A stretch of DNA of 64,000 bases from a virus (Duplodnaviria; Caudoviricetes). Numbering within the stretch: position 1 is the stretch's first letter; each line of letters starts with the position of its first letter. Where the stretch lies: IMG/VR virus record IMGVR_UViG_2508501001_000004, positions 1 to 64,000 of that record, one strand, 5' to 3'. The notes under the pieces are model-generated. The model was not told where the DNA came from, searched no databases, and saw only the letters and a list, made by a program, of their open reading frames with translations. This document shows, piece after piece, positions 379 to 34,142 of this stretch. A program made the position numbers and the translations under genes.

Positions 379-418
379 TTTTATTTCTCCTTTTCAAATT
401 GGCAAGCACTTGCGAATA

Positions 419-1273: not shown

Positions 1274-1274
1274 C

Positions 1275-1721: not shown

Positions 1722-1856
1722 TTAGTCAACATAGTCTATACCGGTAATCGTCTTATACTGTTCTTCAGTGATCTTGCTCTTAACCACAAATACTTTAACG
1801 TCATCAATAGAATAGTTTACTGGATAGTTACTTGACACAAATTTAAACCAATCCAT
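1722..1856 (-). CDS. xkdX: XkdX-family small protein (44 aa, not in ORF track)
   Basis: [44 protein letters not shown]; TAATG overlap with upstream gene. Confidence 0.75.
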
Positions 1857-2170: not shown

Positions 2171-2189
2171 CTGTATTACCTCCTTAATA

Positions 2190-3862: not shown

Positions 3863-3873
3863 AGTCTACCTCC

Positions 3874-4485: not shown

Positions 4486-4489
4486 TGGC

Positions 4490-5041: not shown

Positions 5042-5053
5042 CAGCCTCCCTCC

Positions 5054-6079: not shown

Positions 6080-6082
6080 TGC

Positions 6083-6499: not shown

Positions 6500-6503
6500 T
6501 TAT

Positions 6504-7943: not shown

Positions 7944-8296
7944 ATCATCACCACCTTATCTAGAATTACAAATTTTTGGCCACCCTGGACTCGAAGTAAC
8001 AGGACCTTATCTCCCACTTTAAGACCAGGACGAATAATGACCTTAGAATTTAGGGCCTCGCTTGTTTCTCTTGAGGACCCGCTGTCTGTGTATTGATGAG
8101 TATGCATGAGATCCAGCTCGTACTTAATTAGACTTTCAGGCACAATCAAAAAATCCGCAGGCAGTGTAAAGCGTTGGTCGACTCTTACACTGAGCGGATC
8201 TACTGCGGCGACTTCTCCAAACATAATAGTTACAGGGTTGGAAGCTCCCATTGCATCCATCCCAGCCGCTTTTATAACATCCAGTAAACTTGGCAT
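7940..8296 (-). CDS. xkdR: DUF2577 baseplate protein
   Basis: GLKVGDKVLLLRVQGGQKFVILDKV motif. Confidence 0.85.
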   Translation of the reverse strand: MPSLLDVIKAAGMDAMGASNPVTIMFGEVAAVDPLSVRVDQRFTLPADFLIVPESLIKYELDLMHTHQYTDSGSSRETSEALNSKVIIRPGLKVGDKVLLLRVQGGQKFVILDKVVMM

Positions 8297-9282: not shown

Positions 9283-9293
9283 AATACACCTCC

Positions 9294-9959
9294 TTACGGC
9301 AGCTTTAGGACCCGGCCGATCTGAAGCCGCTTAATCTCGGCATCCGAAATGCCGTTTAAGGATTGCAGCTCCGGCCAGCGAGCTCCGCCTCCCAGTAATT
9401 TCTGAGCCACAGACCAAAGAGTATCACCGGCTGCAAGGGTATAGGTTTTGGGAGTCTGCTGCTCGTTTGGCCTTTCAGGGGCTTGAATTGTTTGTGTTGA
9501 GGCTGTGGCAGTTTCCAAAGTTGAAATGCTGACAGCTCGTCGTGCTGAATAAGGCACATATTTCTTCAACTTTAAGGAATAGTCGATATCACCTGATCTG
9601 CCGGCCTCTTCTTTCCAGTCAAAACCCTCAATACTGGCCAAGGTGTCGATATCAAAGGCATCGGAAATAACAATAAAGCGAATGGGCTGCTTAGCTTCCA
9701 TCCACTTTAGAATAAGTTTTACGTATTCATAGGGCTTCAGCAGGGGTTGAACTGTGACGAAAGGGTAAGGCTGGGCAGGAAAGAAGCTGCTGAAAGCATA
9801 CTCTGAGAGCTTGAGATTTTTTATAACATTGATTTCACCTAATTCCAGTACATCATAGGTTTTGTTTTTTCCGCCTTCTCCTATTTCGAAAGAACCAGGC
9901 ATGACCGGAAGTTGGATTGATTCGGTATTATTGAAGCTTAGATTGATGCCATAGGACAT
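9294..9959 (-). CDS. xkdP: XkdP-like tail tube initiator with LysM domain
   Basis: QLPVMP N-terminus; C-terminal YTLAAGDTLWSVAQK LysM. Confidence 0.85.
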   Translation of the reverse strand: MSYGINLSFNNTESIQLPVMPGSFEIGEGGKNKTYDVLELGEINVIKNLKLSEYAFSSFFPAQPYPFVTVQPLLKPYEYVKLILKWMEAKQPIRFIVISDAFDIDTLASIEGFDWKEEAGRSGDIDYSLKLKKYVPYSARRAVSISTLETATASTQTIQAPERPNEQQTPKTYTLAAGDTLWSVAQKLLGGGARWPELQSLNGISDAEIKRLQIGRVLKLP

Positions 9960-10028
9960 TTTATCACCTGCCTTATCTAGCATACTTCTGGGAAATTTCA
10001 TAAATTTAGAATTTCAGGCCTCTAACCC

Positions 10029-12044: not shown

Positions 12045-12144
12045 ATATATGACCTCCTTTCAGGCATAATAAAAAGCGCCCTGCCTTTCTTCGTTTTAGT
12101 AGATGATAATTTCATTTTCAATTGCATAATTTCCCTAGCATTTT

Positions 12145-12327
12145 CTATTTTTTCTTAAGCTTTGCCCTATCCTGCCTTTCCTTTTTAACTCGAATATCAA
12201 TCATGGCATAGATAGCGGCTTTAGCTTCTCTCGATTTCTTCACGAGCTCATCCGGGGGGATCCGCAGTTCGTGGAGAGCATAGTAAGCGTAATTCCACTC
12301 ACCATCGCCCTCCTCAATTAGTTTTTT
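12145..12327 (-). other. -1 frameshift extension of tail chaperone (G/GT type); slippery A AAA AAC at 12321-12327
   Basis: GTA AAA AAC TAA; -1 frame open as KLIEEGDGEWNYAYYALHELRI...KKK*. Confidence 0.75.
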
Positions 12328-12740
12328 ACCTCATCCATTAAGTCTCCCAGGCTTTGGTCAAAACCGTTCAGTTCTTGCACCTTCTGAACAAGGGTTGCAT
12401 ATTCTCCCGGAAACAACATCTTCCTCAAAAGATCCTCCGCCCCCATGACACCGTAGGATTTTTGCAGCTCCGCGTTTTTTAAATCCGGAAAAACAACACT
12501 GGCCACTAAGATTTTTATCAGATAGGCATTCTGGTCAGTTTCAACCTGCTGTGATCCATTTTTTCCTTTAACTCGTTTTGTGGCCGCTTTGCGATACTCT
12601 TCATTCTCCGTTTCGGTTATATTGTGAATCTTCCAGGGTATTGGCTTGCCATCCGGCCCTTTGAAGCGCTCAGAGACAATTACCTCTTCGGTAACATCGG
12701 ACTGGACATTCTGCGCAAAAAATGCCTGTAAATCACTCAT
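12318..12740 (-). CDS. xkdN: Tail assembly chaperone XkdN-like
   Basis: VFPDLKNAELQKSYGV..AEDLL..ML.PGEY motif. Confidence 0.85.
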   Translation of the reverse strand: MSDLQAFFAQNVQSDVTEEVIVSERFKGPDGKPIPWKIHNITETENEEYRKAATKRVKGKNGSQQVETDQNAYLIKILVASVVFPDLKNAELQKSYGVMGAEDLLRKMLFPGEYATLVQKVQELNGFDQSLGDLMDEVKN

Positions 12741-12850
12741 ACTTTATTCCTCCCATTCCTCACTAATCATTTCGCCCGCGACATGACAGAGCCTCAAAAT
12801 CCGCCTAAGAAAAAGCACTCTTTGCAAGTGCTTTTTCTCGGCAGTCTGAA

Positions 12851-13318
12851 TTATCTGCTTGCCGGTTTATTAAATTGATCCAGCAAATCTGCATCTTCAA
12901 AGGTAAAGGGCATCTCTTCTTCTATGGCATCATCGCTGCTTGCATCAAAGGACGCAATAATAACACTATCCAAGTTGCATCTCTTTAAAACCGTGGTCTG
13001 TTTTCCTACACTTGATGTCGGATCTTCATTAGTAATCTGCAAATCAAAATAGAAATCCCTGCCGGTCTTGATATAGTCCAGCATCAAAGCTCTGAATAAA
13101 CTTGTAACGTAATAAATAGTTAAGGTTCCACTGCCGGACCAGCCCGTTGATTTTTTGGCGACATTCATTCTCCCCAGTATGGGAATATCGGTTTTAGTTT
13201 TTTCAATCGTGGCTTCTATGGATTTAGCATAAAACAATTCTTCCACTCGCCCATTTATTGTGGCAAAGGCACGGGCCTGTTTGCCGATAATGGCATCTTC
13301 AGACTTCATAAATGGCAT
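12851..13318 (-). CDS. xkdM: Tail tube protein
   Basis: GWSGSGTLTIYYVTS, EEEMPFTFED motifs. Confidence 0.9.
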   Translation of the reverse strand: MPFMKSEDAIIGKQARAFATINGRVEELFYAKSIEATIEKTKTDIPILGRMNVAKKSTGWSGSGTLTIYYVTSLFRALMLDYIKTGRDFYFDLQITNEDPTSSVGKQTTVLKRCNLDSVIIASFDASSDDAIEEEMPFTFEDADLLDQFNKPASR

Positions 13319-13319
13319 T

Positions 13320-14636
13320 TTAGTTCACCTGCGCTTTCACATAGATTTTTTCCACACTATCAATCGGCTGGGTGTAGGCCTCTATAAAGACCGCATCCCC
13401 TTCGTTGCCGGCTATGACTGTAATGTCAGACTGGGAATCAAAGTTTTGAATCGCGTTGATTTCCTGCAGGGTCTCCATATAGCGGATACACTCGCCCTTA
13501 AGCAGATTTCTGCCATCATCATTGTTGTTTACTTTCCCAATGTAAAACTCAGAAAAGGTGCTTTCCAGGTAGTTATTAATGCCATCCAGCACCCTGATCA
13601 CTCGATTCTTGCTGAAGGCTTTGCCTTTGTCCGAGGTGAAGCTTGTCAGGGTATTAATATCTTGCTCTACCAGCGCCCGGTTATCATTAGCGGTAAACAA
13701 GAACTCCCCTGCCTTCAGTGCTGTAATAATCTGGGTGTTGGTATATCTGGGCGCCACATCCACTGCTCCATCATAAGCCTGATAAGTAAGTGATTCATTC
13801 ACTTGCGCACCTGACGTTGCACCGGCTACCCAGACAGTGGCTTGAGCTGCCGTAAGGGTTGTTCCGTCAATTAAGATGACACCATTCTTGACACTGATTA
13901 CGCCTTCATAATCGGCCAAAGGATAATTCTCTAAAACCACCTGTATTTTCTTGCCTTCATCATCCCGCAGACGTTTGCAAAAGGCTTGGAACATGGCTTT
14001 AAGGGTATCATCTGTCGAAGGCAGGGCCATGGTGTTGAAGTCGTAAATCTCCACTGCGGCCAAATAGTCAACATAAGCTTGATTAGTGATCGTGCCGTCT
14101 GCGCCATTGACAAGGGGCACACCGGCGGTCTCTGTCAAACTCCCGCTGCCAGAGAATATAACCCAATCATTTGCGGCAAGTCCTGCAATATTCGTTACAA
14201 TTTGCTTATCCATCTCAGTCCCATCGACTAAGGTGGATACATCAAACTTTGTATCATCATCAATATTTTCCTGAATGACCAGGGAAATGTCGTTGCCGCG
14301 AATCCCGCCCCACTTCGCCGTAGCTGTCAGGTTTTCTATGGTTACTGCGGCCTTTGTGCCGGCATTAAGCCGATAAAGAAGCAAGGTTTTGGCTCTCTTC
14401 AAGGCTTCTTTAATCAAGAGCAATCTAGGATCTGTAATGCTGTAACCCAGCATGGAGAAGGTATCCTCTCCGGCTTCAATAGAAATGATTTTATTAGGCT
14501 CTCCCCAGGAGAGCATTAAGGGCAGAGTAGCTATGCCGCGCTCCCCAAGAGTTCCCAGCGCTTGGGGATTAGACTCAAAGTTTATATAAACCCCTGGTCG
14601 CACTTTGTTTTGTATAGTGAATGTACCTGCTGCCAT
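13320..14636 (-). CDS. xkdK: Contractile tail sheath
   Basis: NKVRPGVYINF, QDINTLTSF..K.K.FSKNRVIRVLD motifs. Confidence 0.95.
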   Translation of the reverse strand: MAAGTFTIQNKVRPGVYINFESNPQALGTLGERGIATLPLMLSWGEPNKIISIEAGEDTFSMLGYSITDPRLLLIKEALKRAKTLLLYRLNAGTKAAVTIENLTATAKWGGIRGNDISLVIQENIDDDTKFDVSTLVDGTEMDKQIVTNIAGLAANDWVIFSGSGSLTETAGVPLVNGADGTITNQAYVDYLAAVEIYDFNTMALPSTDDTLKAMFQAFCKRLRDDEGKKIQVVLENYPLADYEGVISVKNGVILIDGTTLTAAQATVWVAGATSGAQVNESLTYQAYDGAVDVAPRYTNTQIITALKAGEFLFTANDNRALVEQDINTLTSFTSDKGKAFSKNRVIRVLDGINNYLESTFSEFYIGKVNNNDDGRNLLKGECIRYMETLQEINAIQNFDSQSDITVIAGNEGDAVFIEAYTQPIDSVEKIYVKAQVN

Positions 14637-14637
14637 T

Positions 14638-14820
14638 TCACCCAACCTCCTTAGTTAAAAAATCGTCAAGTATTGCTTTGATTTGATGACAAGTGTATTT
14701 CTGTCTTTCATCTAAAAGCGCTTGCAAAGCATCCTTTGGGGTATACTGTTTAGACTGTATTATTTGCTGTTTCGTGTAGGCCTTTGCGGTCTGCACTTTC
14801 TTTCCTTCAACCACGTACAT
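14638..14820 (-). CDS. Small conserved protein upstream of sheath
   Basis: YTKQQI..SK.Y...DAL.ALL motif; paralog of 50769-50954. Confidence 0.6.
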   Translation of the reverse strand: MYVVEGKKVQTAKAYTKQQIIQSKQYTPKDALQALLDERQKYTCHQIKAILDDFLTKEVG

Positions 14821-15226
14821 ACCCCTCCTGTTTCATAGACTGCATTAGCCGATCTGATTCAGCCCTGCGCAGTACATAAAAATTATAGGCTACAAAAAAA
14901 TGAAGTACCCCGTCAACAATTTCATGACGCATTCCGGTACCCCTGACAAGCCTGCCGTCCACGCTGATCAGCTCCATCTTGTCATAGAGCTGCTCTGCCA
15001 TGTCATGCAGGTTTCCATTACTTCCTCCATAATAATGAAGATCAAAGAAATGAAACCGTTGATACCGCTGGCCAAGCAGTTGCTCCTGGGACGCAGAAAG
15101 GAGCTTTACAAAAAAACAAGGTTCTTCAAAATCCTCCGCAAGTTCTTCTTCATAAATGCTTATATCGGGAAAATTCTGATCCAATACCGATATAATGCTG
15201 TCGCGAATGAGGTTGACAGTTATCAA
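14807..15226 (-). CDS. Tail terminator/completion protein (XkdJ-like position)
   Basis: PCFFVKL, DGVLHFFV.YNF; paralog of 50941-51366. Confidence 0.7.
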   Translation of the reverse strand: MITVNLIRDSIISVLDQNFPDISIYEEELAEDFEEPCFFVKLLSASQEQLLGQRYQRFHFFDLHYYGGSNGNLHDMAEQLYDKMELISVDGRLVRGTGMRHEIVDGVLHFFVAYNFYVLRRAESDRLMQSMKQEGYVRG

Positions 15227-15756
15227 TAAAATCCCTCCTTTGGTGCAGACCCTTCAACCGGCCTAACCCCTTTGAACTGGAATCCCTGGTTTTCCTTTTT
15301 CTCCTCACTAAATAAAAAAGCCTTGGATTCTTTTAACGATTTGAGCTGATCGTCTAAGCCGACTTTAATTGACCCGTTCTCATTTAGTTCAATCTTTGTT
15401 TTGTCCAGCAGACTAGCAACAATATCTGGATCGTGGGCCTTGCCAGTTAGAGCCAACTTAAGGGCATTAGTTAGCGTAATGGCCTTCACGTCAGCCTCAT
15501 AGTTCTCCTTAGCCTTTTTATTTTCACTTCGGAGGTTAATAATCTCAACCTGAAGGCCGGCAGTATCCACTTTCTTTAGGTCTTCAATCTGCTTATCCCG
15601 GGTAGCAATGTCCTTTTCCAGCTGCTTTTTAGCGCCGTTCACTTCATCGAAACGTAATTTTGGAATATAGCTCCTCAGCTCAACTTGAGACGCTGCCGCG
15701 GCCTTCACTGCTAATTCCTCTCTCAACCCGAGGGCAAGAAACTGCTCTTTATTCAT
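15223..15756 (-). pseudogene. C-terminally truncated capsid scaffold (phage GP20 family)
   Basis: MNKEQFLALGL..YIPK.RFDEVN; ends at the RBS of the next gene; paralog 54025-54666 is longer. Confidence 0.75.
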
Positions 15757-15775
15757 GATTATCGTCCTTTCATCG

Positions 15776-15857
15776 TCACTTTTTGCCCGGTCGTGTCCGG
15801 TGATGTCCTGTTCTTTTACGCCGGCAGTACCGAAACGGCGGCACAATAAAAGCACTC
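15776..15857 (-). ncRNA. Conserved structured leader upstream of scaffold gene (GP20-type cis-regulatory RNA candidate), copy 1
   Basis: Two hairpins; 20-nt core at 15786-15805 identical to 54698-54717. Confidence 0.6.
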
Positions 15858-15879
15858 TTACCTTTTGGCTCGAGTGCTT

Positions 15880-15975
15880 TTCCATTTCTGGAGCTTCTGT
15901 ACACTTTAAAATTTGGAAGTCATCCAAGGTTTTCAGAACATCCTAGCCTGGAATTTCTTTATACCGCCTCCCCGC
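15880..15975 (-). pseudogene. Remnant of MuF minor head protein linker
   Basis: RYKEIPG*DVLKTLDDFQILKCTEA aligns with RYKKILGKDAPKTFDDFRDLKYTEA of 55516-57312. Confidence 0.6.
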
Positions 15976-16100
15976 TCTCCTCCATTTTGGCCTAAACCGA
16001 ATAGTCATTGAAGCAGCTCATTTCTTCTTCTCTTTCTCCAGCCTTCCCAACTCTTCTTAACATCTGTCATCCAAGGATAGTTGCTGACTACAGCTTCATT

Positions 16101-17300
16101 CTATATAATTCCACGGTTGTTTTTGGCATCTTCAATTACTGCACTTTCCTTAATAAGGATATCCCGGTTAAAACGAAAATCAACCGCCTCATTCGAGTAA
16201 TCCCGGCCGGTGGTATTGGCAATATGAGCATCAATAAACCAGCGCAGCTGTTCTAAACTCGCTTGAAATTCAGATTCGATAATATTGGCATCCATGTCCA
16301 GACCAGCATAAAGAACTTTAAGATCGATTCCCGACGGGCTGTTTCCAATCTTGTCAGGCTCGAATAAAACGCCTCTGCCAAATTCATAGATATCTTTGCG
16401 GTTCATCTCCATATGAACTTTATATGCCACATAACTAGAATTTGTCAGATCCTCTAACTTGTTGACATTGTCACTCTTTCGGGCGTCATAGTCATCAATC
16501 AGCTCTTTGATCAGATCCAAAAGAGATTGCTCTTCTTCGTTATATTTAAAGGCAATGAAGGGTACACGCTCCCAATTGACTGGTTTTACGCTATCTCCCT
16601 GAACAACTGTAAAGTGCGCCCCTTCTTCTCCTTCCTCTATATCGGGAACTAGTCCGTACTGTCCCCCGCTTTGTAGAATATATCGTTTTACGCCGTTTAT
16701 ATCCCACCATTCAATCTTCGTTACGACAGTTCGCCGTGTTTCTTCGTAGGTCTCCACCTCATAAACTCTGATCACAGCCTGCAAATCTCTATGTGCTGCA
16801 TTATACCAAAGGGGAATGATTTCTTCCGATGGGATCCTCATAAAGGACAATTGGCCAGTTTCGTCATAGTAGACGTGCAGCCAGGCAATACCTTTCTTGA
16901 TTGCCTCTTTTCCAATATTCTGCAGCATTCGAAGCATCGACTTTCCCCAAAAAGTGGCAAGCTGCTTTTGATAGTCTTGGATGTCTGTCTGTACGCTCAG
17001 CGGTTTGGAAAACAAATATCCAACTTTCTGATCTACCAGCTTGCGAAAAAAGCCATTGACCAATTTATTATTTGATAAATTCCCAACAATTTCTTTTTCC
17101 CCACTGGCCCCGATCTCCCTTCGTTCACGGTTCAGGATGTCTGTTTTATTTCGGTAATAATTCTCCCCTTTGATCATCTCTTTTCGCTTATGAGACGACT
17201 TCCACTCGCTAACCTTTATAGAGATAATCTGCTCCAAGTTCGTCAAATTTTTTACGCCGGCCACGCTCATTGTGGCGATGCGCTCATTTTCTATAATCAC
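16101..17300 (-). pseudogene. SPP1-gp6-like portal with internal 40-aa in-frame deletion and premature stop
   Basis: Colinear with portal 57490-58974; homology continues past TAG (NEAVVSNYPWMTD). Confidence 0.8.
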
Positions 17301-17477
17301 GTCAGTCTCACCTCTTTTCCGGATAGTTTCTGATTTATCAGGCTGCGTGTCCAATGGGATAATTAATGGAAAACAGCTCTGAAGAATCCCTTGCCAGCCA
17401 ATAAAAAACGGCTAACAGAGGAATAGTCAATAAATATACAATAATCTTTGATCAAGTATAGTTTTGTTATGCAATAT

Positions 17478-17590
17478 AAAAAGCGCTCCTTTCGGAACGC
17501 TCTTAAATCATATTTTTGCATTATAGAAATTTTAACATAGCTAAAAGGGATTGTACAGGGCAGGACTTTGGGCATCAATCGGGCAGGACC
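17478..17590 (-). promoter_or_regulatory. Putative late promoter with GTCCTGCCC direct repeats and downstream hairpin
   Basis: Repeats at 17558-17566 and 17581-17589; TATAAT-like -10; hairpin GAGCG-TTCCGAAAGGAG-CGC followed by a T-run. Confidence 0.55.
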
Positions 17591-18129
17591 CGGACATTTT
17601 CATTCAAAGCATCTGCTCCGAAAAGCATAATCTTTAGTTTATTCACCAGGCGATTTTTATTTCTTCTTACAGTTTTTTCATCACATTCAAGATCCGAGGC
17701 AATGCTTTCAATAGTCATTCCATCCCAGTATTTCATGGGAACTATTTCATAATATTTATCATCTTTAATCACTTCAAGGGCCCTGTCAATCCTCATTACC
17801 TCCTGCCTCGTCCGCATCATGCTTGACTTTATACCTTGCGTATATCTGTCAATATCCAATCCATGACTTCCGGTATTACTCGTTGAAAACCTTATAATGT
17901 CTTTTGAGCGATTATTCGTAGGAGTTGTATAGGCTTCAGGATCAAATAAGAATTCTTCATCTTGAGCAACCTTTAGCTTCAAAGCTTGGTAATTATACAG
18001 CAGGGTTTCTGTTTCTTGAAAGAAATTACGTTCAACAAGTGTATCTTGCGTCGCAGCTTTTGCGCTTTCTTGAGCCACCTTATTTACAACCGTTTCAATT
18101 AGTTTAAGAACTTCATTATTGAGTTTCAA
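17575..18129 (-). CDS. RinA/ArpU-like late transcriptional activator
   Basis: C-terminal sigma70-r4-like HTH (KYWDGMTIESIASDLECDEKTVRRNKNRLV); TTG start after GGAG. Confidence 0.75.
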   Translation of the reverse strand: MKLNNEVLKLIETVVNKVAQESAKAATQDTLVERNFFQETETLLYNYQALKLKVAQDEEFLFDPEAYTTPTNNRSKDIIRFSTSNTGSHGLDIDRYTQGIKSSMMRTRQEVMRIDRALEVIKDDKYYEIVPMKYWDGMTIESIASDLECDEKTVRRNKNRLVNKLKIMLFGADALNENVRVLPD

Positions 18130-18400
18130 TTTTCTCCACTCCTCTCCTTTATTTAACTTACGGCTTACATACAATCTCCCTTGATTCCAGTTGCTTACAT
18201 CCTCCCCTCTCTGCCACTTCATTTTTAACCAGCCCAGTCTCCATTTATCCTAGTACCGAATATTCCCGGTGACAGTCGCTCTTCTGTAACCTTTCCAACT
18301 CAAGTAAGCCTCTAACTGTAAGATTGACTGTGACTGCCTGTTGCTTACGTGACATTTTCTTCTCCCTGTCTCACTTTCAAATTATCATTACTTATTCTTA

Positions 18401-22732: not shown

Positions 22733-23196
22733 CACCCCTGCTGCATTATACCCTTATACAATATGTTATTTATAAAGGTATAGTGTTTCTCAGGGATATC
22801 GTAGGCTGCGATCTCCTTAGTCCCCCCAAAAATAGGCTCAGCATTCTCTACTGCTGAGCGTAGCTTTATCCTGTCCCAAACATCCCTCATATAGGTTTCT
22901 CTGGGGCGAATATGTCCTGATACTTTGAGTTTTCCAGAGTAGGGTGCATCCTTATCAAAGAAGAAGATGCAAGAAACATAAAAAGCACCGTCCTAAACGG
23001 TGCTCAACTTACCCAAGAAAGCCGAAAAGCCCAGCATTGCTGGGCTTCGTATGTTCATTCATTGTATCAAAGATTGAGTACTTATTGGTGGAGGCGACCT
23101 TACACTATATAAAACCCTGCAATATAAGGCGATATTCAAGTAGGAAAATAAAGGATTTTAGACCTTCCCCTAGAATAAAGTTTCTAGGTGATGCGT

Positions 23197-23481: not shown

Positions 23482-23569
23482 TATGCCCTTATGGAATACA
23501 TCGCGGTTTTTTGAGTATCAATTACTAACTATTTAGTATTACTAAACATTTAGTAAAGGAGCTGATCCC

Positions 23570-23782
23570 ATGGAGCAACTTAAAGTCACCAGTGTCTCCT
23601 TGACCCCCGACCAAATCACCTATACCAAGGGCAAAGGCAACACCAGCCGCTACATCCGCAGCCTCATTGACCGCGAGATGGGCAACGAGCAAGCCGCAGA
23701 GCGGTGTCAGGCGCTGGTAAGGGCGTACCAGAGCATTATTGACCGACAAAAACAAAAAGAGTCCGGGGACCCGGACCGATGA
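23570..23782 (+). CDS. Small ribbon-helix-helix-like protein
   Basis: AAAGGAG RBS; VTSVSL..DQ..Y...N.SRYIRSLID pattern. Confidence 0.5.
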   Translation: MEQLKVTSVSLTPDQITYTKGKGNTSRYIRSLIDREMGNEQAAERCQALVRAYQSIIDRQKQKESGDPDR

Positions 23783-23879
23783 GCGCAGACTTTGCCTATG
23801 TAAGTTTATCGTCTATAAACTTTATGCGACAGCTACCCCGAAATATGTCTACGAGCAAGCATAAAGGGAGGAAAATCAA

Positions 23880-24200
23880 ATGTTAAGATTAACCAGCCAT
23901 TTTCGAAGGCATAAAACGCTCTGTATTCAGGTGGGAATTACGGCGGTCGTTATGTTCCTCTCCCCTACCGTTGCCCTCGCTTCAAGTGTTGATGACGGGG
24001 GAATGAAAATATACTGGAAGATCGTTAATGTAGGTAAATATGTGATTTTGGTTAAAGGTGCGGTTAACTCTATTCAGTCCGTTTTGGATGGGGATTACGA
24101 AAAAGCAAAGCACCAGTTTATAGGGTATCTTATATGTTTCGGAGCAATGCTTGCTCTCCCTGGAGCTTTAAATCAGATAGAGGAGTTGTTTAAGTCATGA
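23880..24200 (+). CDS. VirB2/TrbC pilin-like membrane protein
   Basis: Signal peptide ending VALA, two hydrophobic helices around GDYEKAK. Confidence 0.55.
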   Translation: MLRLTSHFRRHKTLCIQVGITAVVMFLSPTVALASSVDDGGMKIYWKIVNVGKYVILVKGAVNSIQSVLDGDYEKAKHQFIGYLICFGAMLALPGALNQIEELFKS

Positions 24201-24826
24201 TTATTGCGGCTTTAAAGACCGGAGTTATTTTAGCAATTGTAACAATGGTTATGACGAAGCCGGTTTTATTCATGAGCTACATGCATGTTATTGTTCTACT
24301 TGGCTGTACGTCGTTAATCGTTCTATACGTAGGAGGATTCAGGCCGGGTATCAGATGGGTCGGTATAACTTTAGTGGGATACATTCTGCTTCACATTTTC
24401 ATTGATGTAAACGGCAACGGAGAGACTTTCGTCAAAGGGGAATATATTGCTCCTGTAATTGGTCCTGTATCCAGCCCTTACGGACCGCGTGCCTCTTCCC
24501 CTGACGGTTTTCATTACGGTATCGACTTCGCCGTTCCCGAAGGAACCAGAGTGCTTGCGAGTAAGCCTGGTACAATATGCTTTGCCGGGTATAAGGGAAA
24601 TATCGTTGGGAACGTTGTAGAAATCAACCATCAAGACGGGGCGCAGACTATGTACGCGCATAACAGCCAGGTTTTAGTTTACGTAGGCCAATCCGTGCAA
24701 CAAGGTGACGTAATAGCTTTAAGCGGTAACACAGGCCGTAGCACTGGACCACATGTGCATTTTGAAATAAGGCTGGATAACGGGAAAACCTCAGTAGATC
24801 CTGCACCTCACTTAAATTTACAGTAA
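24197..24826 (+). CDS. Multi-TM protein fused to M23 peptidase
   Basis: HYGID, YAHN, STGPHVHFE M23 motifs; hydrophobic N-terminal ~70 aa. Confidence 0.85.
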   Translation: MIIAALKTGVILAIVTMVMTKPVLFMSYMHVIVLLGCTSLIVLYVGGFRPGIRWVGITLVGYILLHIFIDVNGNGETFVKGEYIAPVIGPVSSPYGPRASSPDGFHYGIDFAVPEGTRVLASKPGTICFAGYKGNIVGNVVEINHQDGAQTMYAHNSQVLVYVGQSVQQGDVIALSGNTGRSTGPHVHFEIRLDNGKTSVDPAPHLNLQ

Positions 24827-24838
24827 GGAGGCGACACA

Positions 24839-27196
24839 ATGAAGTCAATTAAACTTTGCGACTATATAGCAATCGTAAAGCCTTCCTACGTTTATTTAAA
24901 GCTTACACCTAATAACTCGATACGAAATAACACTTCCAATAATTTGGCAAAAACTATAGGCTCTCTTTACAAAACCTTTCATCAAAGCATAAAAATTGAA
25001 CACAAAAAATTAATTAAATTATTCGGGAAGAAATTCGTCTTGGGTTCCAAGTATTCTTTAATACTAAACCCCAAAGTTAGCTATTACATTTATATAGAAA
25101 AGAAACGGATCGAGTTTTACTTTATTGTTCCAGAGCAGTCTCAAAGCATTATTAAAGAAAAAATGACAGATTCCTGGAATAACGTAACAGTCCAAGCTGT
25201 GAATGAACTTCCAGGCTTCAACGAAGACGTCACTACCTACCAATTAGACTACTCAAAAGAAGATGGTCTCAGTCTTGCCGTTGACAAACGCAGTAACAGT
25301 CTCTTAGAAAGTAACCTTAATATAGTAGACATCATGCATGAAGGCGATAAAGTGGGGATCTTTTATAACTTTATTCCTACATCCCAACGAAGCTGGTTAA
25401 GTGAATATAAGGCTACCATCACTAAAGTACGCAAAGAGCAACCTGTAGATAAAAATAAGACTGGTATTATTTACTTATTTAAGCTGGCATTCTCCCTTTT
25501 ATCGGGGCTTGTAGACGATGTCGGCGGGTTCCTTGGTGATGACAGCCGTCAAAAATACTTAGTTAGGTATGAAAAGAACAATGCCTCTATTCTAGAGCAA
25601 ACATTACGTAGCGCAATTAATCATAAAGTAGTGTCTAATGCAACCGTAACTAAAGGCAAGCACATGGTACTAAATATTCAAGCTATCGTACTGAGTGAAA
25701 GTAAGGACGACCTACACCAGCGAAATAACGCAATAGCTCTAGCCCAAAGCTACGACTGCATAGGTGAAGATAATAGCTTACGACACCGAAAGTACAAAGG
25801 TAAATTCCATCACTTAGATACTAAGATTAAAGGGGCTGCTACGATGAAAGTAAGCGTTTACGAATGCGGCAACTTCTTGGCGCTCCCTGGACGTGAATTA
25901 CTTGAAAAACACAAGTTTATTGAAAAGGTAGAGACATTAGAGACTGAGGTGCCGGACGAACTCCTAAAGGGAGTAATGTGCTTAGGCGAAAACACGTACA
26001 AAGGCTATACACAAAAGGTCTACATGAGTACAGATTTTGATTATCAAATGCTTTCGCTGGTACTCATCGGGCCTAACCGGGCAGGCAAATCGAAGTTCCT
26101 TGCAAACATAGCCCGGGATGCTATTGAGGCAGGAGAGTGCGTAATCATCCCCGACTACATCGGGAGCTGCCAGCTAAGTGAAGAAATCGCAACAACCTTC
26201 CCAAGAGATAAAGTTCTGGAGATTAGGTGTGATCACTGGGATACGTTGCAAGGGCTTGGCTATAATGAGGTTCCACGAAGCACAACCCATTTTATCCAGT
26301 ACAAAAATGCTAAGGAGCAATCGGCTCTACTGATGACGCTCGTTGATAGCATTAATGCTGACGATGCAAACTTCACGGCTAAAATGGGGAGATATTTTGA
26401 AAGCGCGGCATTAGCGGTATTCCTGTCTAATGGTAATATAAAAGACGTATTCGCCACTCTAATTAATTACAAAGTCAGGAAGTCATTTATAGACCGAATA
26501 CCTGCAGAGCAAATGGAAAACATGGAAGAGTATATCGATTACCTACATGAGCTGGATAACGTTGAAAAAGGCAAGGTAGTTGGCACCAAGATGCACTTAA
26601 TTACCGGTGCTGTAGATAGGCTACAAAAGCTTAAGGTTAATGCTTATATCGAGACCATGCTTAAAAAAGGAACTGAGAATAATATTGATCTGGTTAAGGA
26701 AATGCAGAAAAACCAGCTTATAGTTATTAAGATGCCTCAGCGTATGTTTCTGACCGACAATGAGAAAGACGTTTATGTAACTTATTGGCTCACTAAGATA
26801 TGGCTTGCCCTGCAGATCCGGGAAGAGCAGATTCAAGATAGACGCAAAATGACTAAGGTAAACTTAATTATCGATGAGCTCTACCAAGTGAACAATGCGG
26901 AGAAATTCCTCAAGCTGAAACTTAGCCAGCTCCCGAAGTTTAATCTTAAACCTATCATCAGCTGCCATTACCTCAACCAAGTTAAGACTATCCGCGAAGA
27001 ATTCAGGAGCGCCAATGCGTCATATATGCTCATCAGCGGATGTGATAAAAAGAATTATGATGAGTTGAAAAGCGAACTATACCCCTATACGGAAGAAGAC
27101 TTGTTAAGCCTTAAGCGCTTTCACAGCTTGAACCTGATGAAGTGCAATGAAGGATACGCGAAGTTCATAACTAGCTTACCGGCACCTATTTCTTAA
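24839..27196 (+). CDS. Large HerA/VirD4/VirB4-superfamily P-loop ATPase
   Basis: Walker A GPNRAGKS, CVIIPD strand, Walker B LIIDE, ISCHYLNQ. Confidence 0.75.
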   Translation: MKSIKLCDYIAIVKPSYVYLKLTPNNSIRNNTSNNLAKTIGSLYKTFHQSIKIEHKKLIKLFGKKFVLGSKYSLILNPKVSYYIYIEKKRIEFYFIVPEQSQSIIKEKMTDSWNNVTVQAVNELPGFNEDVTTYQLDYSKEDGLSLAVDKRSNSLLESNLNIVDIMHEGDKVGIFYNFIPTSQRSWLSEYKATITKVRKEQPVDKNKTGIIYLFKLAFSLLSGLVDDVGGFLGDDSRQKYLVRYEKNNASILEQTLRSAINHKVVSNATVTKGKHMVLNIQAIVLSESKDDLHQRNNAIALAQSYDCIGEDNSLRHRKYKGKFHHLDTKIKGAATMKVSVYECGNFLALPGRELLEKHKFIEKVETLETEVPDELLKGVMCLGENTYKGYTQKVYMSTDFDYQMLSLVLIGPNRAGKSKFLANIARDAIEAGECVIIPDYIGSCQLSEEIATTFPRDKVLEIRCDHWDTLQGLGYNEVPRSTTHFIQYKNAKEQSALLMTLVDSINADDANFTAKMGRYFESAALAVFLSNGNIKDVFATLINYKVRKSFIDRIPAEQMENMEEYIDYLHELDNVEKGKVVGTKMHLITGAVDRLQKLKVNAYIETMLKKGTENNIDLVKEMQKNQLIVIKMPQRMFLTDNEKDVYVTYWLTKIWLALQIREEQIQDRRKMTKVNLIIDELYQVNNAEKFLKLKLSQLPKFNLKPIISCHYLNQVKTIREEFRSANASYMLISGCDKKNYDELKSELYPYTEEDLLSLKRFHSLNLMKCNEGYAKFITSLPAPIS

Positions 27197-27262
27197 ATAA
27201 AAAAGCAGAACCCCAGTGCTGCCCTAAACACCAGGTTTCTGCTCCAGCGATATATTCTTAAC
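27197..27262 (-). ncRNA. Putative sigmaK-driven small RNA convergent with ATPase gene
   Basis: GTCAC-N17-CATATAGT at 27297-27268 followed by an AGCAGAA/TTCTGCT hairpin and T6. Confidence 0.45.
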
Positions 27263-27301
27263 ACTACACTATATGTCCATGCCCCAGGATGTGTGACAAA
27301 G

Positions 27302-27329
27302 CGCCGGCTAATTGCCGGCGTCTTTTTTG
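27302..27329. terminator. Bidirectional terminator
   Basis: GCGCCGGC-loop-GCCGGCGT with T-runs. Confidence 0.7.
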
Positions 27330-27335: not shown

Positions 27336-27923
27336 TTAAAATTTCGGGAATTTCCCCTCATCAATAAGCCTTTGTCTTTGCTTAGCCATTTTGGCTGCTT
27401 CTCGCTTTTGCTTTTCCAAAAGCCCTTCTCTTTCCGCCTCGGCTTCCCTCCATGATATTAACTTAGGAATTGCCGCATAAATAAGGTTCTCTATAGATCC
27501 AAACTTTTTACCCGTAAATGGGCAAATATATTGCGTCTTTATGCCTATCTCGGCCAACTCTGCGCCCTTGGGGAAAAGATTACGTATAAGATCATCCTTT
27601 ACGTCAGCGATAACTCCCTGGGAAGGATCTAGACTGTGCACATAGATATAGTGGTCCCAGTCTCTCATTAGGTCTTGCATCGTGTAAACAATCCCGCTCC
27701 TCTCAACGGCTTTAGGAGATGGGTCTTTCTTCTTTTGAGCCTTAACCGGGGCCGGGTTCATTTTTTCCTGTATGGCCGCATTAACGAAGGCGTTAACGCT
27801 CAAGCCTTTCTTCTCGGCAAAAGCTTGGATTACTTCCTTTTCCCCTTTTTTCACAGTAAGGGGTATCCGATCATATGCCTTTTCGTTATACTTTCGATTT
27901 GCTTTAGTTCGCGCCGTGGGCAT
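27336..27923 (-). CDS. Arc/RHH DNA-binding protein with C-terminal extension
   Basis: ANRKYNEKAYDRIPLTVKKGEKEVIQAFAEKKGLSVNAFV. Confidence 0.75.
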   Translation of the reverse strand: MPTARTKANRKYNEKAYDRIPLTVKKGEKEVIQAFAEKKGLSVNAFVNAAIQEKMNPAPVKAQKKKDPSPKAVERSGIVYTMQDLMRDWDHYIYVHSLDPSQGVIADVKDDLIRNLFPKGAELAEIGIKTQYICPFTGKKFGSIENLIYAAIPKLISWREAEAEREGLLEKQKREAAKMAKQRQRLIDEGKFPKF

Positions 27924-27956
27924 AGCATCACCTCAACCTAAGCATAACACAAAAAA

Positions 27957-28031
27957 TGTACTAACGCTAGTATAATTATAATTGACTATGTACTAGCGCT
28001 ATGGTATATTATATGTAATAACACTAGTACA
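27957..28031 (+). promoter_or_regulatory. sigmaA promoter with TGTACTA(A/G)CGCTA repeats
   Basis: TTGACT-N17-TATATT; two direct repeats and an inverted CTAGTACA copy. Confidence 0.7.
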
Positions 28032-28050
28032 TACAAAGGAGGCCGCCACA

Positions 28051-28248
28051 ATGACGAACTTTACCACCATCACCGAACTTGAAATACTCCGCTTAGCATC
28101 CTTTGAATTGCTAGCAATGGCAAGCAAAGAAGCTGATAGGCTGAGGGCCAACCCCGAAAGCCAAATCGCACAGCACCGCCACAACAAGTTTTACAAGCAA
28201 TACGATGAGATAAAAAAGAGAATAATCACATTGGAAAACGCAATATAA
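28051..28248 (+). CDS. Small helical hypothetical protein
   Basis: AAAGGAGG RBS directly after promoter. Confidence 0.7.
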   Translation: MTNFTTITELEILRLASFELLAMASKEADRLRANPESQIAQHRHNKFYKQYDEIKKRIITLENAI

Positions 28249-28305
28249 AAACCAAAGCCGAAAGCCGGGCGGCTAAGCCCGGCGTGATGAGAAAGGATGA
28301 TATGT

Positions 28306-28455
28306 GTGAATTCTAAGGTATATGAAGACAATTATGGAATATGTCGTTGTGAAAAGTGCAGCACTGAATTACTATGCGATGAAAATGGGGATATGCCTGA
28401 TGTTTGCCCATCGTGTAAAACTACTCTTGACTGGTCCATTTACGAACCCGCCTGA
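28306..28455 (+). CDS. Small zinc-ribbon protein (49 aa); stop codon lies in the ribozyme core
   Basis: AAAGGA RBS, GTG start, CEKC...CPSC. Confidence 0.65.
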   Translation: MNSKVYEDNYGICRCEKCSTELLCDENGDMPDVCPSCKTTLDWSIYEPA

Positions 28456-28519
28456 CGATGGCCTGAGGGACCAGGCCGAAACCTAACCCGGACAAGCCCC
28501 GGGGAGGTCGCGGGATCCC
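28447..28519 (+). ncRNA. Type I hammerhead ribozyme
   Basis: Stem I CCCGC/GCGGG, CUGACGA, stem II GGCCUG/CAGGCC, GAAA, stem III CCU/AGG + CCCGG/CCGGG, GUC cleavage triplet at 28507-28509. Confidence 0.9.
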
Positions 28520-28656
28520 GCTTCGAGCTGGCTTTGCAAAGTCAGCCTTGATATAGATTTTGATCTTTGTGGCCTAAATATTTATACTTTCGGCAGGAAT
28601 CTCCATAATTTAAGAGAAACTATACTAAAAATACAATATTTTGGGGGTTGTTCATA

Positions 28657-29574
28657 ATGGGGGAACAATTGCGGAAAGCGGCATATAAGGGCGACGTTGT
28701 CATTGGTAATATTAGAATACCTTGCGCTGTGTTAGACAATGGGAAAAGAGTATTAAGCGAAACTGGTATAACCCATGCTATACTAGGAACGGCAAGCGGT
28801 GCATCAAGGCGACTAAAAAAAGAACACCAAGAAGCCGGGGCCCCTTTGCCCGTTTTTATAGCCCCTAAAAACCTGAAACCCTTTGTTGATAAGGCTTTAG
28901 ATGTCGGGTCCCTTGATCCAATTTTATATTTAGACGGGAAAAGAACCGTCAGTGGTTACGATGCATCAATTCTTCCTACTGTATGTGATATTTGGCTTAA
29001 TGCAAGAGAGGCAAATATATTACAGAAACAACAATTAGATAAGGCATTGAAAGCAGAAATTCTTATGAGGGGCCTTGCTCATACAGGTATAATAGCTTTG
29101 ATTGACGAGGCTACTGGATATCAAGAAGTAAGAGAAAAAGATGCCCTTCAAAAATTGCTAGCCATTTACTTGACAGATGAAAGACTAAAATGGGCAAAAA
29201 TGTTCCCAGATGAATATTATCGACAACTATTTAGATTGAGAAAATGGAATTATGATCCCCTTGATACACACAGACCGAGATTGGTTGGAAAATTGACTAA
29301 TCAATTGGTATATGAAAAGCTGCCCCCCGGTGTTCTTGATGAGCTAAAGAAATTGAACCCCGTCAAAAATAAACAGTCAGGTAGAAGAGAAGCTACCCAC
29401 CACCAACATCTTTCAACAGACATTGGACAAAAGGACTTACGTGACCATCTTATGCAGTTGATAGCTATCATGAGGATATCATCTTCGTGGGAAATATTTA
29501 AAAAGAATTTTCAAAAGGCTTTTCCTCCTTCAAGCGGAATACAGGAAGAATTATTTGAAGAAGAAGATCTATAA
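28657..29574 (+). CDS. P63C-domain protein
   Basis: GIIALIDEATGYQ..R...ALQ..L..YL...W.K.FPDEYY; HHQHL. Confidence 0.85.
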   Translation: MGEQLRKAAYKGDVVIGNIRIPCAVLDNGKRVLSETGITHAILGTASGASRRLKKEHQEAGAPLPVFIAPKNLKPFVDKALDVGSLDPILYLDGKRTVSGYDASILPTVCDIWLNAREANILQKQQLDKALKAEILMRGLAHTGIIALIDEATGYQEVREKDALQKLLAIYLTDERLKWAKMFPDEYYRQLFRLRKWNYDPLDTHRPRLVGKLTNQLVYEKLPPGVLDELKKLNPVKNKQSGRREATHHQHLSTDIGQKDLRDHLMQLIAIMRISSSWEIFKKNFQKAFPPSSGIQEELFEEEDL

Positions 29575-30176: not shown

Positions 30177-31181
30177 CTATTTATTGATTATCTTACCTAT
30201 ATTCTTCATCTCTATAGATAAAGTTCCATCAGGATTATTAATGAACTCAATATAGTCCTTATTATGGAAGTAATCCGCTGGAAATGTTATTTCGATTCCC
30301 GTGTCAGTTTTAATCCTATGATTTTTTCCCTTTTTGATTGCAAAGGATCTATCTACCTTTACTGTCTCGGGAATGCCAGTATTTTTTACTTCTTTAATAT
30401 ATTCTTCTTGCATTATAGGAGAAGAGTTAAATACTTCTTTGCCTAATTCTGTCGTATCTAAGTATTCTGATACTTCCGCGTTTTCTACTAAATAATTTTT
30501 AACCTTAGAGATAGCCGCAACACTGCTTTGTCCATGATTCTCTGATACCATGCGTGTAATGGAATGAAGCAAATCAATTGCGTTTTTAGGAGAAATAGTA
30601 GAGTTACATCCTAAAACTATATCGGATAGGATATAAGTATCCTTACCATCAATAAATCTTTTCTTGTCACAGAATCTAATATCTAGAGAGCTTACCTCAA
30701 TAATGGCATATTCATCGATTTTTTGTGAAATATTTGGTAATATAGCATAATGATTGATGATTCCATTTTGTATTTTTCCCTCATTTTTAATTACTTGATG
30801 AGTAAACCCCACTTTATTATTACATTTTAATATTGCAATAAACCTTTTATCATCAATGTTCACGTCACAAACGATTAAATCTGCAGGTTCTAAAATATCT
30901 GATAGAGATATAGCGGAGTATACTAATTCTGCGGTATGAACAGAAAAACTAGTAAAGTCTATATTATCGGTAACGTATTCCGTAAGTTTTTTCTTGTAAC
31001 TACTATCTGCATTAAAATTACCAGATTTTGAACCAGAATCGTTCATTATCTTTTCAATATGTTTCGTTAAGAAAGTAAGAACACTTTTACTCCCTATATC
31101 TAATTCCTGATCTGAAAATACCATTATACCGGACTTGAAATCCAGAATATGCAGAATAGCCTTATTTATTATCGTTATCAA
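30177..31181 (-). CDS. YejK/NdpA (37-kDa nucleoid-associated)-like protein
   Basis: INKAILHILD start, IAILKCNNK, KIDEYAII, IKTDTGIEI.FP motifs. Confidence 0.7.
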   Translation of the reverse strand: MITIINKAILHILDFKSGIMVFSDQELDIGSKSVLTFLTKHIEKIMNDSGSKSGNFNADSSYKKKLTEYVTDNIDFTSFSVHTAELVYSAISLSDILEPADLIVCDVNIDDKRFIAILKCNNKVGFTHQVIKNEGKIQNGIINHYAILPNISQKIDEYAIIEVSSLDIRFCDKKRFIDGKDTYILSDIVLGCNSTISPKNAIDLLHSITRMVSENHGQSSVAAISKVKNYLVENAEVSEYLDTTELGKEVFNSSPIMQEEYIKEVKNTGIPETVKVDRSFAIKKGKNHRIKTDTGIEITFPADYFHNKDYIEFINNPDGTLSIEMKNIGKIINK

Positions 31182-31809
31182 TATGTTCGCCTTCTCTTTC
31201 TTTTTTAAAGATAATCAAAAGCTTATAGGCAATACTCTCTCTAAACAATACTATTGTATTATATATAGCACTCTTTAGTTCGTAAATAATTCGAAATATA
31301 TACGTGAAGTAGATAATAAGTACCAGTACCGCCAAGCTATTATTAATTATATAATTACTAGTCAATACCCATTCATTGACTATACAATTTAAGAACAGCA
31401 ATATCACACCAGTTATACATAATCCTATAAAATACAGAAACAATACAGATTCATAATATTTAGTACTGATCATCAAAGATGATACACCATCAGTTTTGAG
31501 TTTTGCTAGTTCCTTTATATATTTATCGCTCAAAAATGCCAATAAAATAGCATAGATAGTAAATAGGTATCCAAATATATAAAGCAACACATTAAGAAGA
31601 ACCCCTACTATAGCTAATAATATTTTTACCGTATTTTCATTAATCCCTATTATGGCAGCAAAAAAGACACCTAGAACAAAGCTAATAACGAAAGCAATCC
31701 AATTATTTTTATCTGGAGTAATTTCTTTGAAGGCGTCTATTATCATCTTTTTTGCAGGTGTTTTTTCTGTAAATTCATTAATTGTCGCAAAATATTTTTC
31801 TTCGTTCAT
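31162..31809 (-). CDS. Four-TM membrane protein
   Basis: Four hydrophobic segments; overlaps next gene by 20 nt. Confidence 0.8.
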   Translation of the reverse strand: MNEEKYFATINEFTEKTPAKKMIIDAFKEITPDKNNWIAFVISFVLGVFFAAIIGINENTVKILLAIVGVLLNVLLYIFGYLFTIYAILLAFLSDKYIKELAKLKTDGVSSLMISTKYYESVLFLYFIGLCITGVILLFLNCIVNEWVLTSNYIINNSLAVLVLIIYFTYIFRIIYELKSAIYNTIVLFRESIAYKLLIIFKKEREGEHIDNDNK

Positions 31810-31846
31810 TAATTTACACCTGCTTTCTGTCGAAGAAATCACAATA

Positions 31847-32791
31847 TCACAATAATGAACGTAAGGCAGCTACATATCTTTTATACCAAGCCTCGTTTTC
31901 CTTACTAACATTTTTTATTATTGATTCTTTTTGTGCAATTAAAACGAAATATTCATCATCATCGCTAGTTACATCTTTAGCGAAAGCAATTTTCTTGTTA
32001 GACGAAAAAGAATCTTCTCTAATTTTTTCATCCTCGCCGTCTTTATTCTTAACAAATAGTGTTGTTCTAGCTTGCCCAGAAGTCTCTTCTAATAATTTTT
32101 GAATTCCCTCTTTAGAGTCCGGGGAGTTAAATGTTAAATTAGTGGTATTTGAACCGAGACTTTTCATTTCTGCTCTAATTGAGTTTGCAATTGGTCGCTT
32201 ACCAAAATCATTATTAAGTGGAAAAAAATTAAGTTTTACCCACTTAATTTTTTGAACACTTTTGAGTACAGCGTTAATGTCTTCTTTAAGTGGCATATCT
32301 ACAATATTGACTAAGGCGTTCGGCAAAGTTGTAGTAGGCTTACGTTTATTTTCTCGTTGTTCCTTATTAGCTTCACGGGTATATTTATTCAGAATATATC
32401 TTACTGTAGCTTGGAAGCTTCTAATATCGGGACTTACAGATTCATTTCGCACCAGAATCATGCGATGATTTTTTAAAAAAATAATAAATCTTGAGTAAGG
32501 AGCCGTTGGGTGCTTTGCCGGGGAAGCGGTTAACGCTCCATTCGTAACAGTTGTATGAATCGTATATTCAGTTTCTTTTATATAATTTCCAACGAGTATA
32601 TATTCCCCGCCTTTGATTTGCTTGATCTCAACATCAGTAAATAGAAAATGAGGGATTTCATCAACCTTTCCCCTCATGATACCAGATGTAAAAGCAGGAA
32701 AAATGATGTCCTTGAAATGTGATAGCATTGGCTCTGCTTTTTCCCCAAAGGTAATATTGAAATTAGCCAAGTGCATTATCTTTTCGTTCAC
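31847..32791 (-). CDS. Hypothetical soluble protein, DUF4747-like
   Basis: FIIFLKNHRM..SP....F...L and VNIV..P...I...L..I..V.L..PLN.D pattern reminiscent of DUF4747. Confidence 0.5.
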   Translation of the reverse strand: MNEKIMHLANFNITFGEKAEPMLSHFKDIIFPAFTSGIMRGKVDEIPHFLFTDVEIKQIKGGEYILVGNYIKETEYTIHTTVTNGALTASPAKHPTAPYSRFIIFLKNHRMILVRNESVSPDIRSFQATVRYILNKYTREANKEQRENKRKPTTTLPNALVNIVDMPLKEDINAVLKSVQKIKWVKLNFFPLNNDFGKRPIANSIRAEMKSLGSNTTNLTFNSPDSKEGIQKLLEETSGQARTTLFVKNKDGEDEKIREDSFSSNKKIAFAKDVTSDDDEYFVLIAQKESIIKNVSKENEAWYKRYVAALRSLL

Positions 32792-33401: not shown

Positions 33402-34142
33402 TTACCCCAAATACTTCGCCACAGCAGCCGCTGTCTGATATTTATCGTTCCCACTCAACAGGACTTCGTTTGGATGATTGGTCGTTGCCCCGCCCACCAC
33501 GATCAGCTTTTCAGCCGCCCTAGCCTCCGCCGGCACAGAGAGATCCGGAGGCCGCACAAAGATGGCACAATTACCATGCTTTACGGCAACATCATACCCC
33601 GCCCAGAAGTCTTCCTTCGTATATAGTAGGACAGCTGTTTTTAGCACATCTCTCCCTCCCTTCAAATCCTTGAATAACCTATCCCACGGGAATCCAACCC
33701 CCGGGCAATTAGGCCTATTAACACTGTCGATACGGTAATGCCCTATGATGTGATCAGCATCAATCGGTATACCGTATTTTTGCGTTAGATCCTTGTGCAG
33801 CCAAAGCGTGGCTTGGTATTGGGCCTCCGGCATCACATCTCCTGGCTGGCCCTCATGCTCGATCCCGAGTGTGTAAGTGTTTGGGTTCGTGCCATCATAC
33901 AAAGCCCAGCTTGGCTTGTTGCGAATGCCCGCGTGCCAAGCCGTGTCTCCTTCTTTGACCAGCTGCAGGATGCGGCCTGTCTTTGTTACGAGATAGTGAG
34001 CACTCGATTGCGAAGCCGGATTGCAAAGCCAATTGAGACAGCCAGGGTAACTGCCGGCGGTGACGTGGTCCACTATGGCAATGATTTTGCGTCCTCCCCT
34101 GCTACTGTAATTCGGGGATGGATGCCATTCGATTACTGGCAT
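33402..34142 (-). CDS. Endolysin, Amidase_2 with CWB2-like C-terminus
   Basis: DHVT, SAHY, AWHAG, GIEHEG, IIGH..CPG motifs. Confidence 0.9.
   Translation of the reverse strand: MPVIEWHPSPNYSSRGGRKIIAIVDHVTAGSYPGCLNWLCNPASQSSAHYLVTKTGRILQLVKEGDTAWHAGIRNKPSWALYDGTNPNTYTLGIEHEGQPGDVMPEAQYQATLWLHKDLTQKYGIPIDADHIIGHYRIDSVNRPNCPGVGFPWDRLFKDLKGGRDVLKTAVLLYTKEDFWAGYDVAVKHGNCAIFVRPPDLSVPAEARAAEKLIVVGGATTNHPNEVLLSGNDKYQTAAAVAKYLG

Follow-up and report, generated by a model that had tools for sequence, protein, structure and literature searches.

A ribbon-helix-helix (RHH) regulator gene, a divergent promoter with three palindromic operators, two small open reading frames (ORF1 and ORF2) separated by an RNA pseudoknot, and a type I hammerhead ribozyme form a compact cassette (Table 1) in the window, the 64,000-nt stretch of DNA analysed here. 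The whole window corresponds to bases 5376193–5440192 of a genome that is complete at 5.66 Mb. The host belongs to the Firmicutes, with close homologues in Desulfosporosinus sp. OT. A 12-bp att core (window 23086–23097) recurs 59 kb away at the 3' end of a tmRNA gene (C1:5458285), which places the cassette 4–5.5 kb inside one end of a ~59-kb prophage. The tmRNA tag ends in NENNYALAA and the gene adjoins a 530-aa recombinase-like ORF; it has an unusual T-loop and was missed by ARAGORN. The cassette occupies the prophage cargo region, beyond the lysis genes (endolysin, 33402–34142), and it shares both its prophage location and its variable small genes with the ribozyme-punctuated small-gene operons of prophages.

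Table 1. Features of the cassette and its borders (window coordinates)
Feature	Position	Strand	Basis or remark
Conserved left boundary: promoter-like site flanked by two hairpins that resemble terminators in either direction	27200–27329		terminators called
195-aa regulator: N-terminal ribbon-helix-helix (~residues 18–55), C-terminal domain without assigned function	27336–27923	-	
Extended -10 (TGnTATGCT) of putative leftward RHH promoter	27941–27949	-	sequence; kept in L350–L353 and L362
Operator 1 (TGTACTA-N4-TAGTATA palindrome), covering the RHH promoter's -35 region	27957–27974		
SigmaA promoter TTGACT-17-TG-TATATT	27982–28010	+	10/12 match; position kept in relatives
Operator 2, in the spacer of the rightward promoter	27989–28006		
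Operator 3, over the predicted start site	28014–28031		
ORF1, 65-aa helical protein	28051–28248	+	single homologue found
27-nt H-type pseudoknot	28257–28283	+	S1 28257–60/28270–73, L1 AAA, S2 28264–69/28278–83, loop UAAG
ORF2, 49-aa C4 zinc-ribbon protein	28306–28455	+	52 aa if from ATG 28297
Type I hammerhead ribozyme with loop II/3'-tail pseudoknot	28447–28519	+	fold, descriptor, family comparison
Alternative GCGG/CCGC hairpin, competing for stem I and capping the 3' product at its 5' end	28510–28521	+	covariation, fold
Second hairpin, structure kept, sequence variable; possible weak intrinsic terminator	28523–28551	+	U-tract poor in this copy
BoxA-like motif, cut off by the P63C insertion	28560–28569	+	resembles host rrn boxA TGGTCTTTGAAAA
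P63C-domain gene	28657–29574	+	Pfam P63C, E 3e-31

The divergent regulator, preceded by its ribosome-binding site (RBS) at 27928–27934, matched PHROG 13890 (E 6e-25), the Arc-like PHROG 582 (E 0.002), the AvtR RHH domain (E 0.008) and Arc (E 0.12), and has five full-length homologues. These family matches to RHH proteins of the Arc/MetJ type, weak but consistent, agree with a strand-helix-helix arrangement in a low-confidence structural model (helices at residues 28–38 and 43–55) and bear out an RHH assignment made in a preliminary description of this DNA. The N-terminus and the palindromic operators over divergent promoters resemble those of Arc/MetJ/CopG repressors; unlike these, the protein carries an extra 120-aa C-terminal domain. 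Protein P0008 (L351) fuses an RHH domain to a zinc-ribbon domain resembling the type of ORF2.

Upstream of the small ORFs, the strong sigmaA promoter noted in that description was recovered; it has an extended -10 element. The repeated TGTACTA(A/G)CGCTA sites noted beside it are present too, although they are in fact three 18-bp palindromes. Matches to the repeat numbered eight in the window versus 1.6 expected, five of them in a 75-bp intergenic stretch. Across ~50 relatives, the upstream repeat changes together with the RHH recognition strand: x-L/V-T strands occur with TAACG(C/T)TA, E-L-K with TAACGTCA-type sites and N-Y-V with TTGCGCAA. Operator sequence thus tracks the RHH β-strand, and through this covariation RHH control of the rightward promoter is well supported. 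Other copies contain an Xre helix-turn-helix (HTH) protein in place of the RHH protein, which identifies the regulator as a swappable module.

The two small ORFs offered little annotation. ORF1 matched no protein family, and its homologue is the first ORF of another RHH cassette (L355; 34% identity, pairwise E 6e-9). ORF2, which probably starts at GTG 28306 as judged from RBS spacing and homologue starts, had 91 HMMER matches in a set of representatives at 50% identity, a few of these matches being to repeat proteins; none of its homologues carries an informative name, and atlas matches to the ORFs were nameless or generic zinc ribbons. Word-indexed protein searches returned no ORF2 homologue and, for ORF1, only itself. 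An ORF2 homologue follows a hammerhead in L120. In sister cassettes the same elements enclose unrelated ORFs, 359 flanking ORFs fell into 172 clusters, and most of the 141 representatives scanned were without a Pfam family; on these comparisons, cargo genes and regulator are exchangeable. The last small ORFs of L350–L353, unrelated to one another, share ESTRP as their final residues. This suggests that they run into a further conserved RNA element; these regions had no Rfam match.

Between ORF1 and ORF2, two GC hairpins had been described as mutually exclusive. Both helices exist, but they share no base and form a single covarying H-type pseudoknot. A G extending S2, which would make the helices exclusive, occurs in only 4 of 59 pseudoknot copies. 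A viral scan that placed no constraint on S2 gave 48 matches, 43 of them fully complementary (9 helix sequences); when S1 was unconstrained instead, 32/34 were paired (3 helix sequences). The element is common at phage gene junctions, typically just after a stop codon and before an RBS. In the intact sister cassettes examined it lies at or near the first gene junction, while twister-P5, twister-sister and type II hammerhead ribozymes occupy neighbouring junctions in the same loci. Rfam searches at gathering thresholds and at E ≤ 10 gave no relevant match. Three other readings of the element were rejected: it has no core that would make it the other half of a hammerhead, it has neither the P3 nor the P1.1 of an HDV-like ribozyme, and a signal for read-through or frameshifting is contradicted by the absence of a slippery site and by stop spacing that varies from 1 to >15 nt.

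The closest likeness is to the coremin xrRNA-C and xrRNA-WCC elements of eukaryotic RNA viruses (PMC10321173, PMC10520033), which share the compact H-type topology, the 4-bp S1 (hp1) and short L1, the A-rich loop and the position a few nucleotides after a stop codon. In contrast to these, the bacterial element has an S2 of 6–7 bp instead of 3 and A in L1 instead of G or a pyrimidine, and an RBS follows where the viral elements have a second hairpin (hp2); neither a YGAD loop nor G5 with a 3-bp S2 was found. By sequence, the phage pseudoknot is not a member of coremin/xrRNA-WCC, but it may, by analogy, work like an xrRNA.

The complete type I hammerhead reported at the end of the cassette agreed with our analysis at every position: the core lies at 28452–28458, an extra U (28459) between A9 and G10.1, GAAA at 28478–28481 and C17 at 28509, and stem I pairs 28447–28451 with 28510–28514. 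Core, GAAA and NUH junction are present, stem I is open and stems II and III are closed, and a tertiary contact is provided by loop II (GGGA, 28467–28470), complementary to UCCC at 28516–28519. Cleavage after C28509, between 28509 and 28510, is very likely on these features. The hammerhead fold is both the minimum free energy (MFE) and the centroid structure (the 68-nt motif has z -2.26). When both strands of the 5.66-Mb genome were scanned with a strict type I descriptor, this site alone was retrieved; three shuffles gave none. Two further copies were found elsewhere in the genome, 12 of 60 related genomes match the stretch, and pattern scans identified >109 viral loci and many Clostridia contigs.

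Together, these copies form a large hammerhead family in Firmicutes phages (262 distinct copies). The U between A9 and G10.1 is present in 224/262 copies. This naturally occurring insertion is tolerated, and an extra U at the same place raised cleavage 3–4-fold in a viroid hammerhead (PMC3705267). Several pair types occur across the 262 copies at position 2 of stem I, positions 2, 4 and 5 of stem II and position 3 of stem III; the family descriptor imposed pairing and fixed part of the sequence, while the variety of pair types was not imposed. Complementarity between loop II and the 3' tail (3.46 nt) was above every one of 1000 permutations (mean 2.94, maximum 3.16), which upholds the GGGA/UCCC pseudoknot proposed earlier. 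No Rfam hammerhead model scores this ribozyme at gathering thresholds or at E ≤ 10; as the descriptor is matched, this points to a gap in the Rfam library. Several genus copies have broken cores (L009, L010, L011, L016 and L021), so that selection may be relaxed in old prophages; the copy here has a complete core. Among viral loci (e.g. L039, L046, L073 and L086), the motif CTTCCAAATC / TTTCAAAT is enriched 10–50 nt after internal hammerheads (10–12% vs 1–2%).

A second CCCGC (28517–28521), earlier suggested to compete for stem I, proved to be a real competitor that covaries with its partner. CCGC follows in 105/160 products beginning with GCGG, whereas those beginning with GUGG are followed by CCGC in 6/85 and by CCAC in 65/85, counts that are inflated by kinship and include CCAC that can also come from the pseudoknot strand. 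Both double states were seen in seven spacer backgrounds, and rarer stems obey the same rule. By this covariation, the competitor is under selection. The resulting cap hairpin, 4 bp long, begins at the first base of the 3' cut product, where it would block re-ligation and shield the 5'-OH end against RNase J. Products that ribozymes such as glmS leave with a 5'-OH are degraded by RNase J1 (PMC3997798), and the host genome encodes two RNase J-like proteins. The cap could act before cleavage too, as an alternative fold. Whether it is present has only a weak relation to the position of the stop (p 0.054) or to an RBS downstream (p 0.013), so that roles before and after cleavage are not told apart by these data.

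Beyond the ribozyme, the order of elements is the second hairpin, the boxA-like motif and a terminator for convergent genes. Terminator calling found no canonical terminator after the hammerhead; in relatives, the second hairpin is a probable weak terminator. The boxA-like motif is fuller in relatives, and such a sequence after the terminal hairpin (here and in L003, L017 and L358) may recruit NusB/S10. The P63C gene sits between boxA and the downstream terminator and was set aside as an insertion, the flanks being contiguous in relatives (L012, L013 and L018). At the other end, the left boundary is 93% identical in the second genomic copy and 73–77% identical in relatives. A minus-strand promoter-like site is followed there by a strong hairpin and U-tract, from which a small RNA of 60 nt, convergent with the upstream gene, could arise; the Xre genes of sister cassettes end inside this boundary.

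We lean, if only slightly, towards reading the locus as an accessory cassette for gene expression, autoregulated and lying at the end of a temperate phage, in which constitutive cleavage is combined with structural protection of mRNA ends. Sequence and covariation suggest that the RHH protein would bind the three palindromes and repress the rightward promoter, and it probably regulates its own. Given the conserved fold, the hammerhead would form behind RNA polymerase and cut constitutively. The cut mRNA would then terminate in stem III, carrying a cyclic phosphate and an overhang of one base, which 3' exonucleases would attack poorly. The strand set free would refold as the GCGG/CCGC hairpin, making the cut irreversible and the new 5' end inaccessible to RNase J. 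The pseudoknot after ORF1 may be a roadblock to 5'-to-3' decay, and the ORF2 mRNA, protected on both sides, would outlive that of ORF1. The conserved elements may double as joints for swapping unrelated small genes, and an ORF losing its own stop would end on the in-frame core UGA. Recurrence of the same architecture with unrelated ORFs and with either Xre-HTH or RHH regulators counts in favour of end protection. Against it, the terminal subfamily has no small ORF after the hammerhead, leaving only the later-inserted P63C gene to protect; the cap is merely 4 bp; the roadblock role draws on topological likeness to a eukaryotic-virus element, the sequence rules of which the phage pseudoknot does not follow; and cores are broken in several genus copies.

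The position of stop codons bears on a different reading. The preliminary description centred on translation-coupled cleavage, and its observation that the UGA of the zinc-ribbon ORF is the core UGA is correct (U4-G5-A6, 28453–28455). Among 191 copies with an upstream ORF, the stop lies on the core UGA in 37 (19%), 5–16 nt upstream of the core in 101 and further away in 45, with read-through in 8; both arrangements, on the core and upstream, occur within the genus. The non-catalytic intergenic pseudoknot has the stop 5–15 nt before it in 49/54 cases. As this spacing is the same, a stop on the core is no evidence of translation coupling, which is not supported as the main point; tight packing and ORFs running into an in-frame core UGA can explain the stop pattern without coupling. 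If a ribosome terminates at the core or immediately ahead of it, it might still hold the 5' strand of stem I while the competitor hairpin takes the 3' strand, making cleavage hinge on translation of the upstream ORF. Such gating would fit the 138/191 stops within -16..+1 of the core, retention of the competitor even where no ORF follows, and its slightly higher frequency with near stops (76% vs 60%, p 0.054). Blocking the 5' strand of stem I in silico gave an alternative fold of -44.8 kcal/mol compared with -46.4 kcal/mol, but this ~1.6 kcal/mol gap leaves out the stabilising pseudoknot. Moreover, RNA polymerase outruns ribosomes in Bacillus subtilis (PMC13323073), and if it does so here the ribozyme folds first. 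With exact overlap in so few copies and the stop spacing shared by a non-catalytic element, we regard ribosome gating, the chief competing explanation, as unlikely.

Other readings concern the cargo and the released RNA. ORF1 and ORF2 had been thought a tightly repressed, possibly toxic or anti-host pair, and a strong promoter beneath three operators would suit a toxic or anti-defence function, as would Lar, YodL, DUF932 or anti-repressor proteins among some family-wide neighbours and ardA beside hammerheads elsewhere (PMC3088659). However, the two ORFs never occur together elsewhere in the loci examined, neither has a Pfam, PHROG or PADLOC function, and most flanking ORFs across the hammerhead family are unannotated. 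With no toxin or defence family match, no conserved gene pair, no antitoxin layout and unrelated ORFs in the same slots of sister cassettes, we consider this view quite improbable. Even harder to credit is that the purpose lies in the 3' piece (~45–60 nt, two hairpins and a boxA-like tail), whether released as a small RNA or, with as little probability, cut off so that an antitermination site is parted from the mRNA. The order of cap hairpin, second hairpin and boxA-like motif is indeed kept in the terminal subfamily despite sequence change, yet the loop sequences are not conserved, boxA is cut off in this copy, and the second hairpin with a U-rich tail is simply explained as a terminator. Equally doubtful is the idea that, in a cargo region that is being shuffled, the RNA motifs persist chiefly as inherited joints for recombination and have little effect on expression: ORFs, regulators and downstream genes do swap exactly at the RNA elements, and the decayed cores listed above would agree, but compensatory changes in all helices indicate selection on RNA structure, and the core is complete here. 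A bolder extension of the end-protection reading, which we hold as tentative and rather doubtful, is that Firmicutes phages possess a protein-free RNA kit of end protectors against RNase J, an xrRNA-like pseudoknot plus a hammerhead with cap hairpin, possibly ribosome-gated. It is likewise only tentatively that we picture this kit setting mRNA stability for each small gene in repressor-controlled, exchangeable cassettes.

Phages have been known to carry this overall layout since 2011; the cassette is an intact example of ribozyme-punctuated prophage operons. Perreault et al. (2011; PMC3088659; reviewed in PMC6765202) described hammerheads flanking variable small genes in prophages, including those of Clostridium scindens, Agrobacterium and Azorhizobium. 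Consensus core, pseudoknot tertiary contact, prophage location, non-constant neighbour genes and a proposed role in processing polycistronic mRNA are common to both, whereas the cassette here has a single terminal hammerhead from a subfamily matched by no Rfam model. Twister-P5 (RF02684), twister-sister (RF02681) and type II hammerhead (RF02276) ribozymes occupy the same phage small-gene operon niche and occur in sister cassettes with the same regulator or pseudoknot, although their folds differ. A covarying post-cleavage cap hairpin and a divergent RHH/Xre control module were not found described in PMC3088659 or PMC6765202; the subfamily itself may be in the 2011 list. In the literature searched, we found no description of the cap hairpin or the pseudoknot, the latter of which may figure among RAGATH motifs (Weinberg 2015, 2017).

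The role that self-cleaving ribozymes play in bacteria and phages is a standing question (PMC6765202), for which this 1.2-kb cassette is a compact test system: it has a single promoter, a single repressor whose operator code can be read and, at the RNA level, one pseudoknot and one ribozyme whose competitor covaries. With a handful of point mutants, constitutive end protection could be told apart from cleavage gated by ribosomes. Should the pseudoknot halt RNase J, it would count as a bacterial exonuclease-resistant RNA and could also serve to stabilise mRNA in Gram-positive hosts.

Several observations were made around the cassette. The prophage end (window 23569–27196) encodes a small RHH-like ORF, a membrane protein, an M23 peptidase and a 785-aa ATPase (PHROG 5156). 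On the other side, a three-gene moron (30177–32791; 314, 226 and 334 aa) has a defence-island-like placement and no PADLOC match; its 334-aa protein appears nucleoid-associated-like by eye. A phage tail module in which head and replication genes are not obvious, and which is possibly a PBSX-like tailocin or a remnant, shares 70–81% identity with its counterpart in the neighbouring prophage (window 1–18300 vs 32900–58000). Elsewhere, the genome carries two tRNA-Pyl genes and one tRNA-Sec gene (C1:667618 and 2896485).
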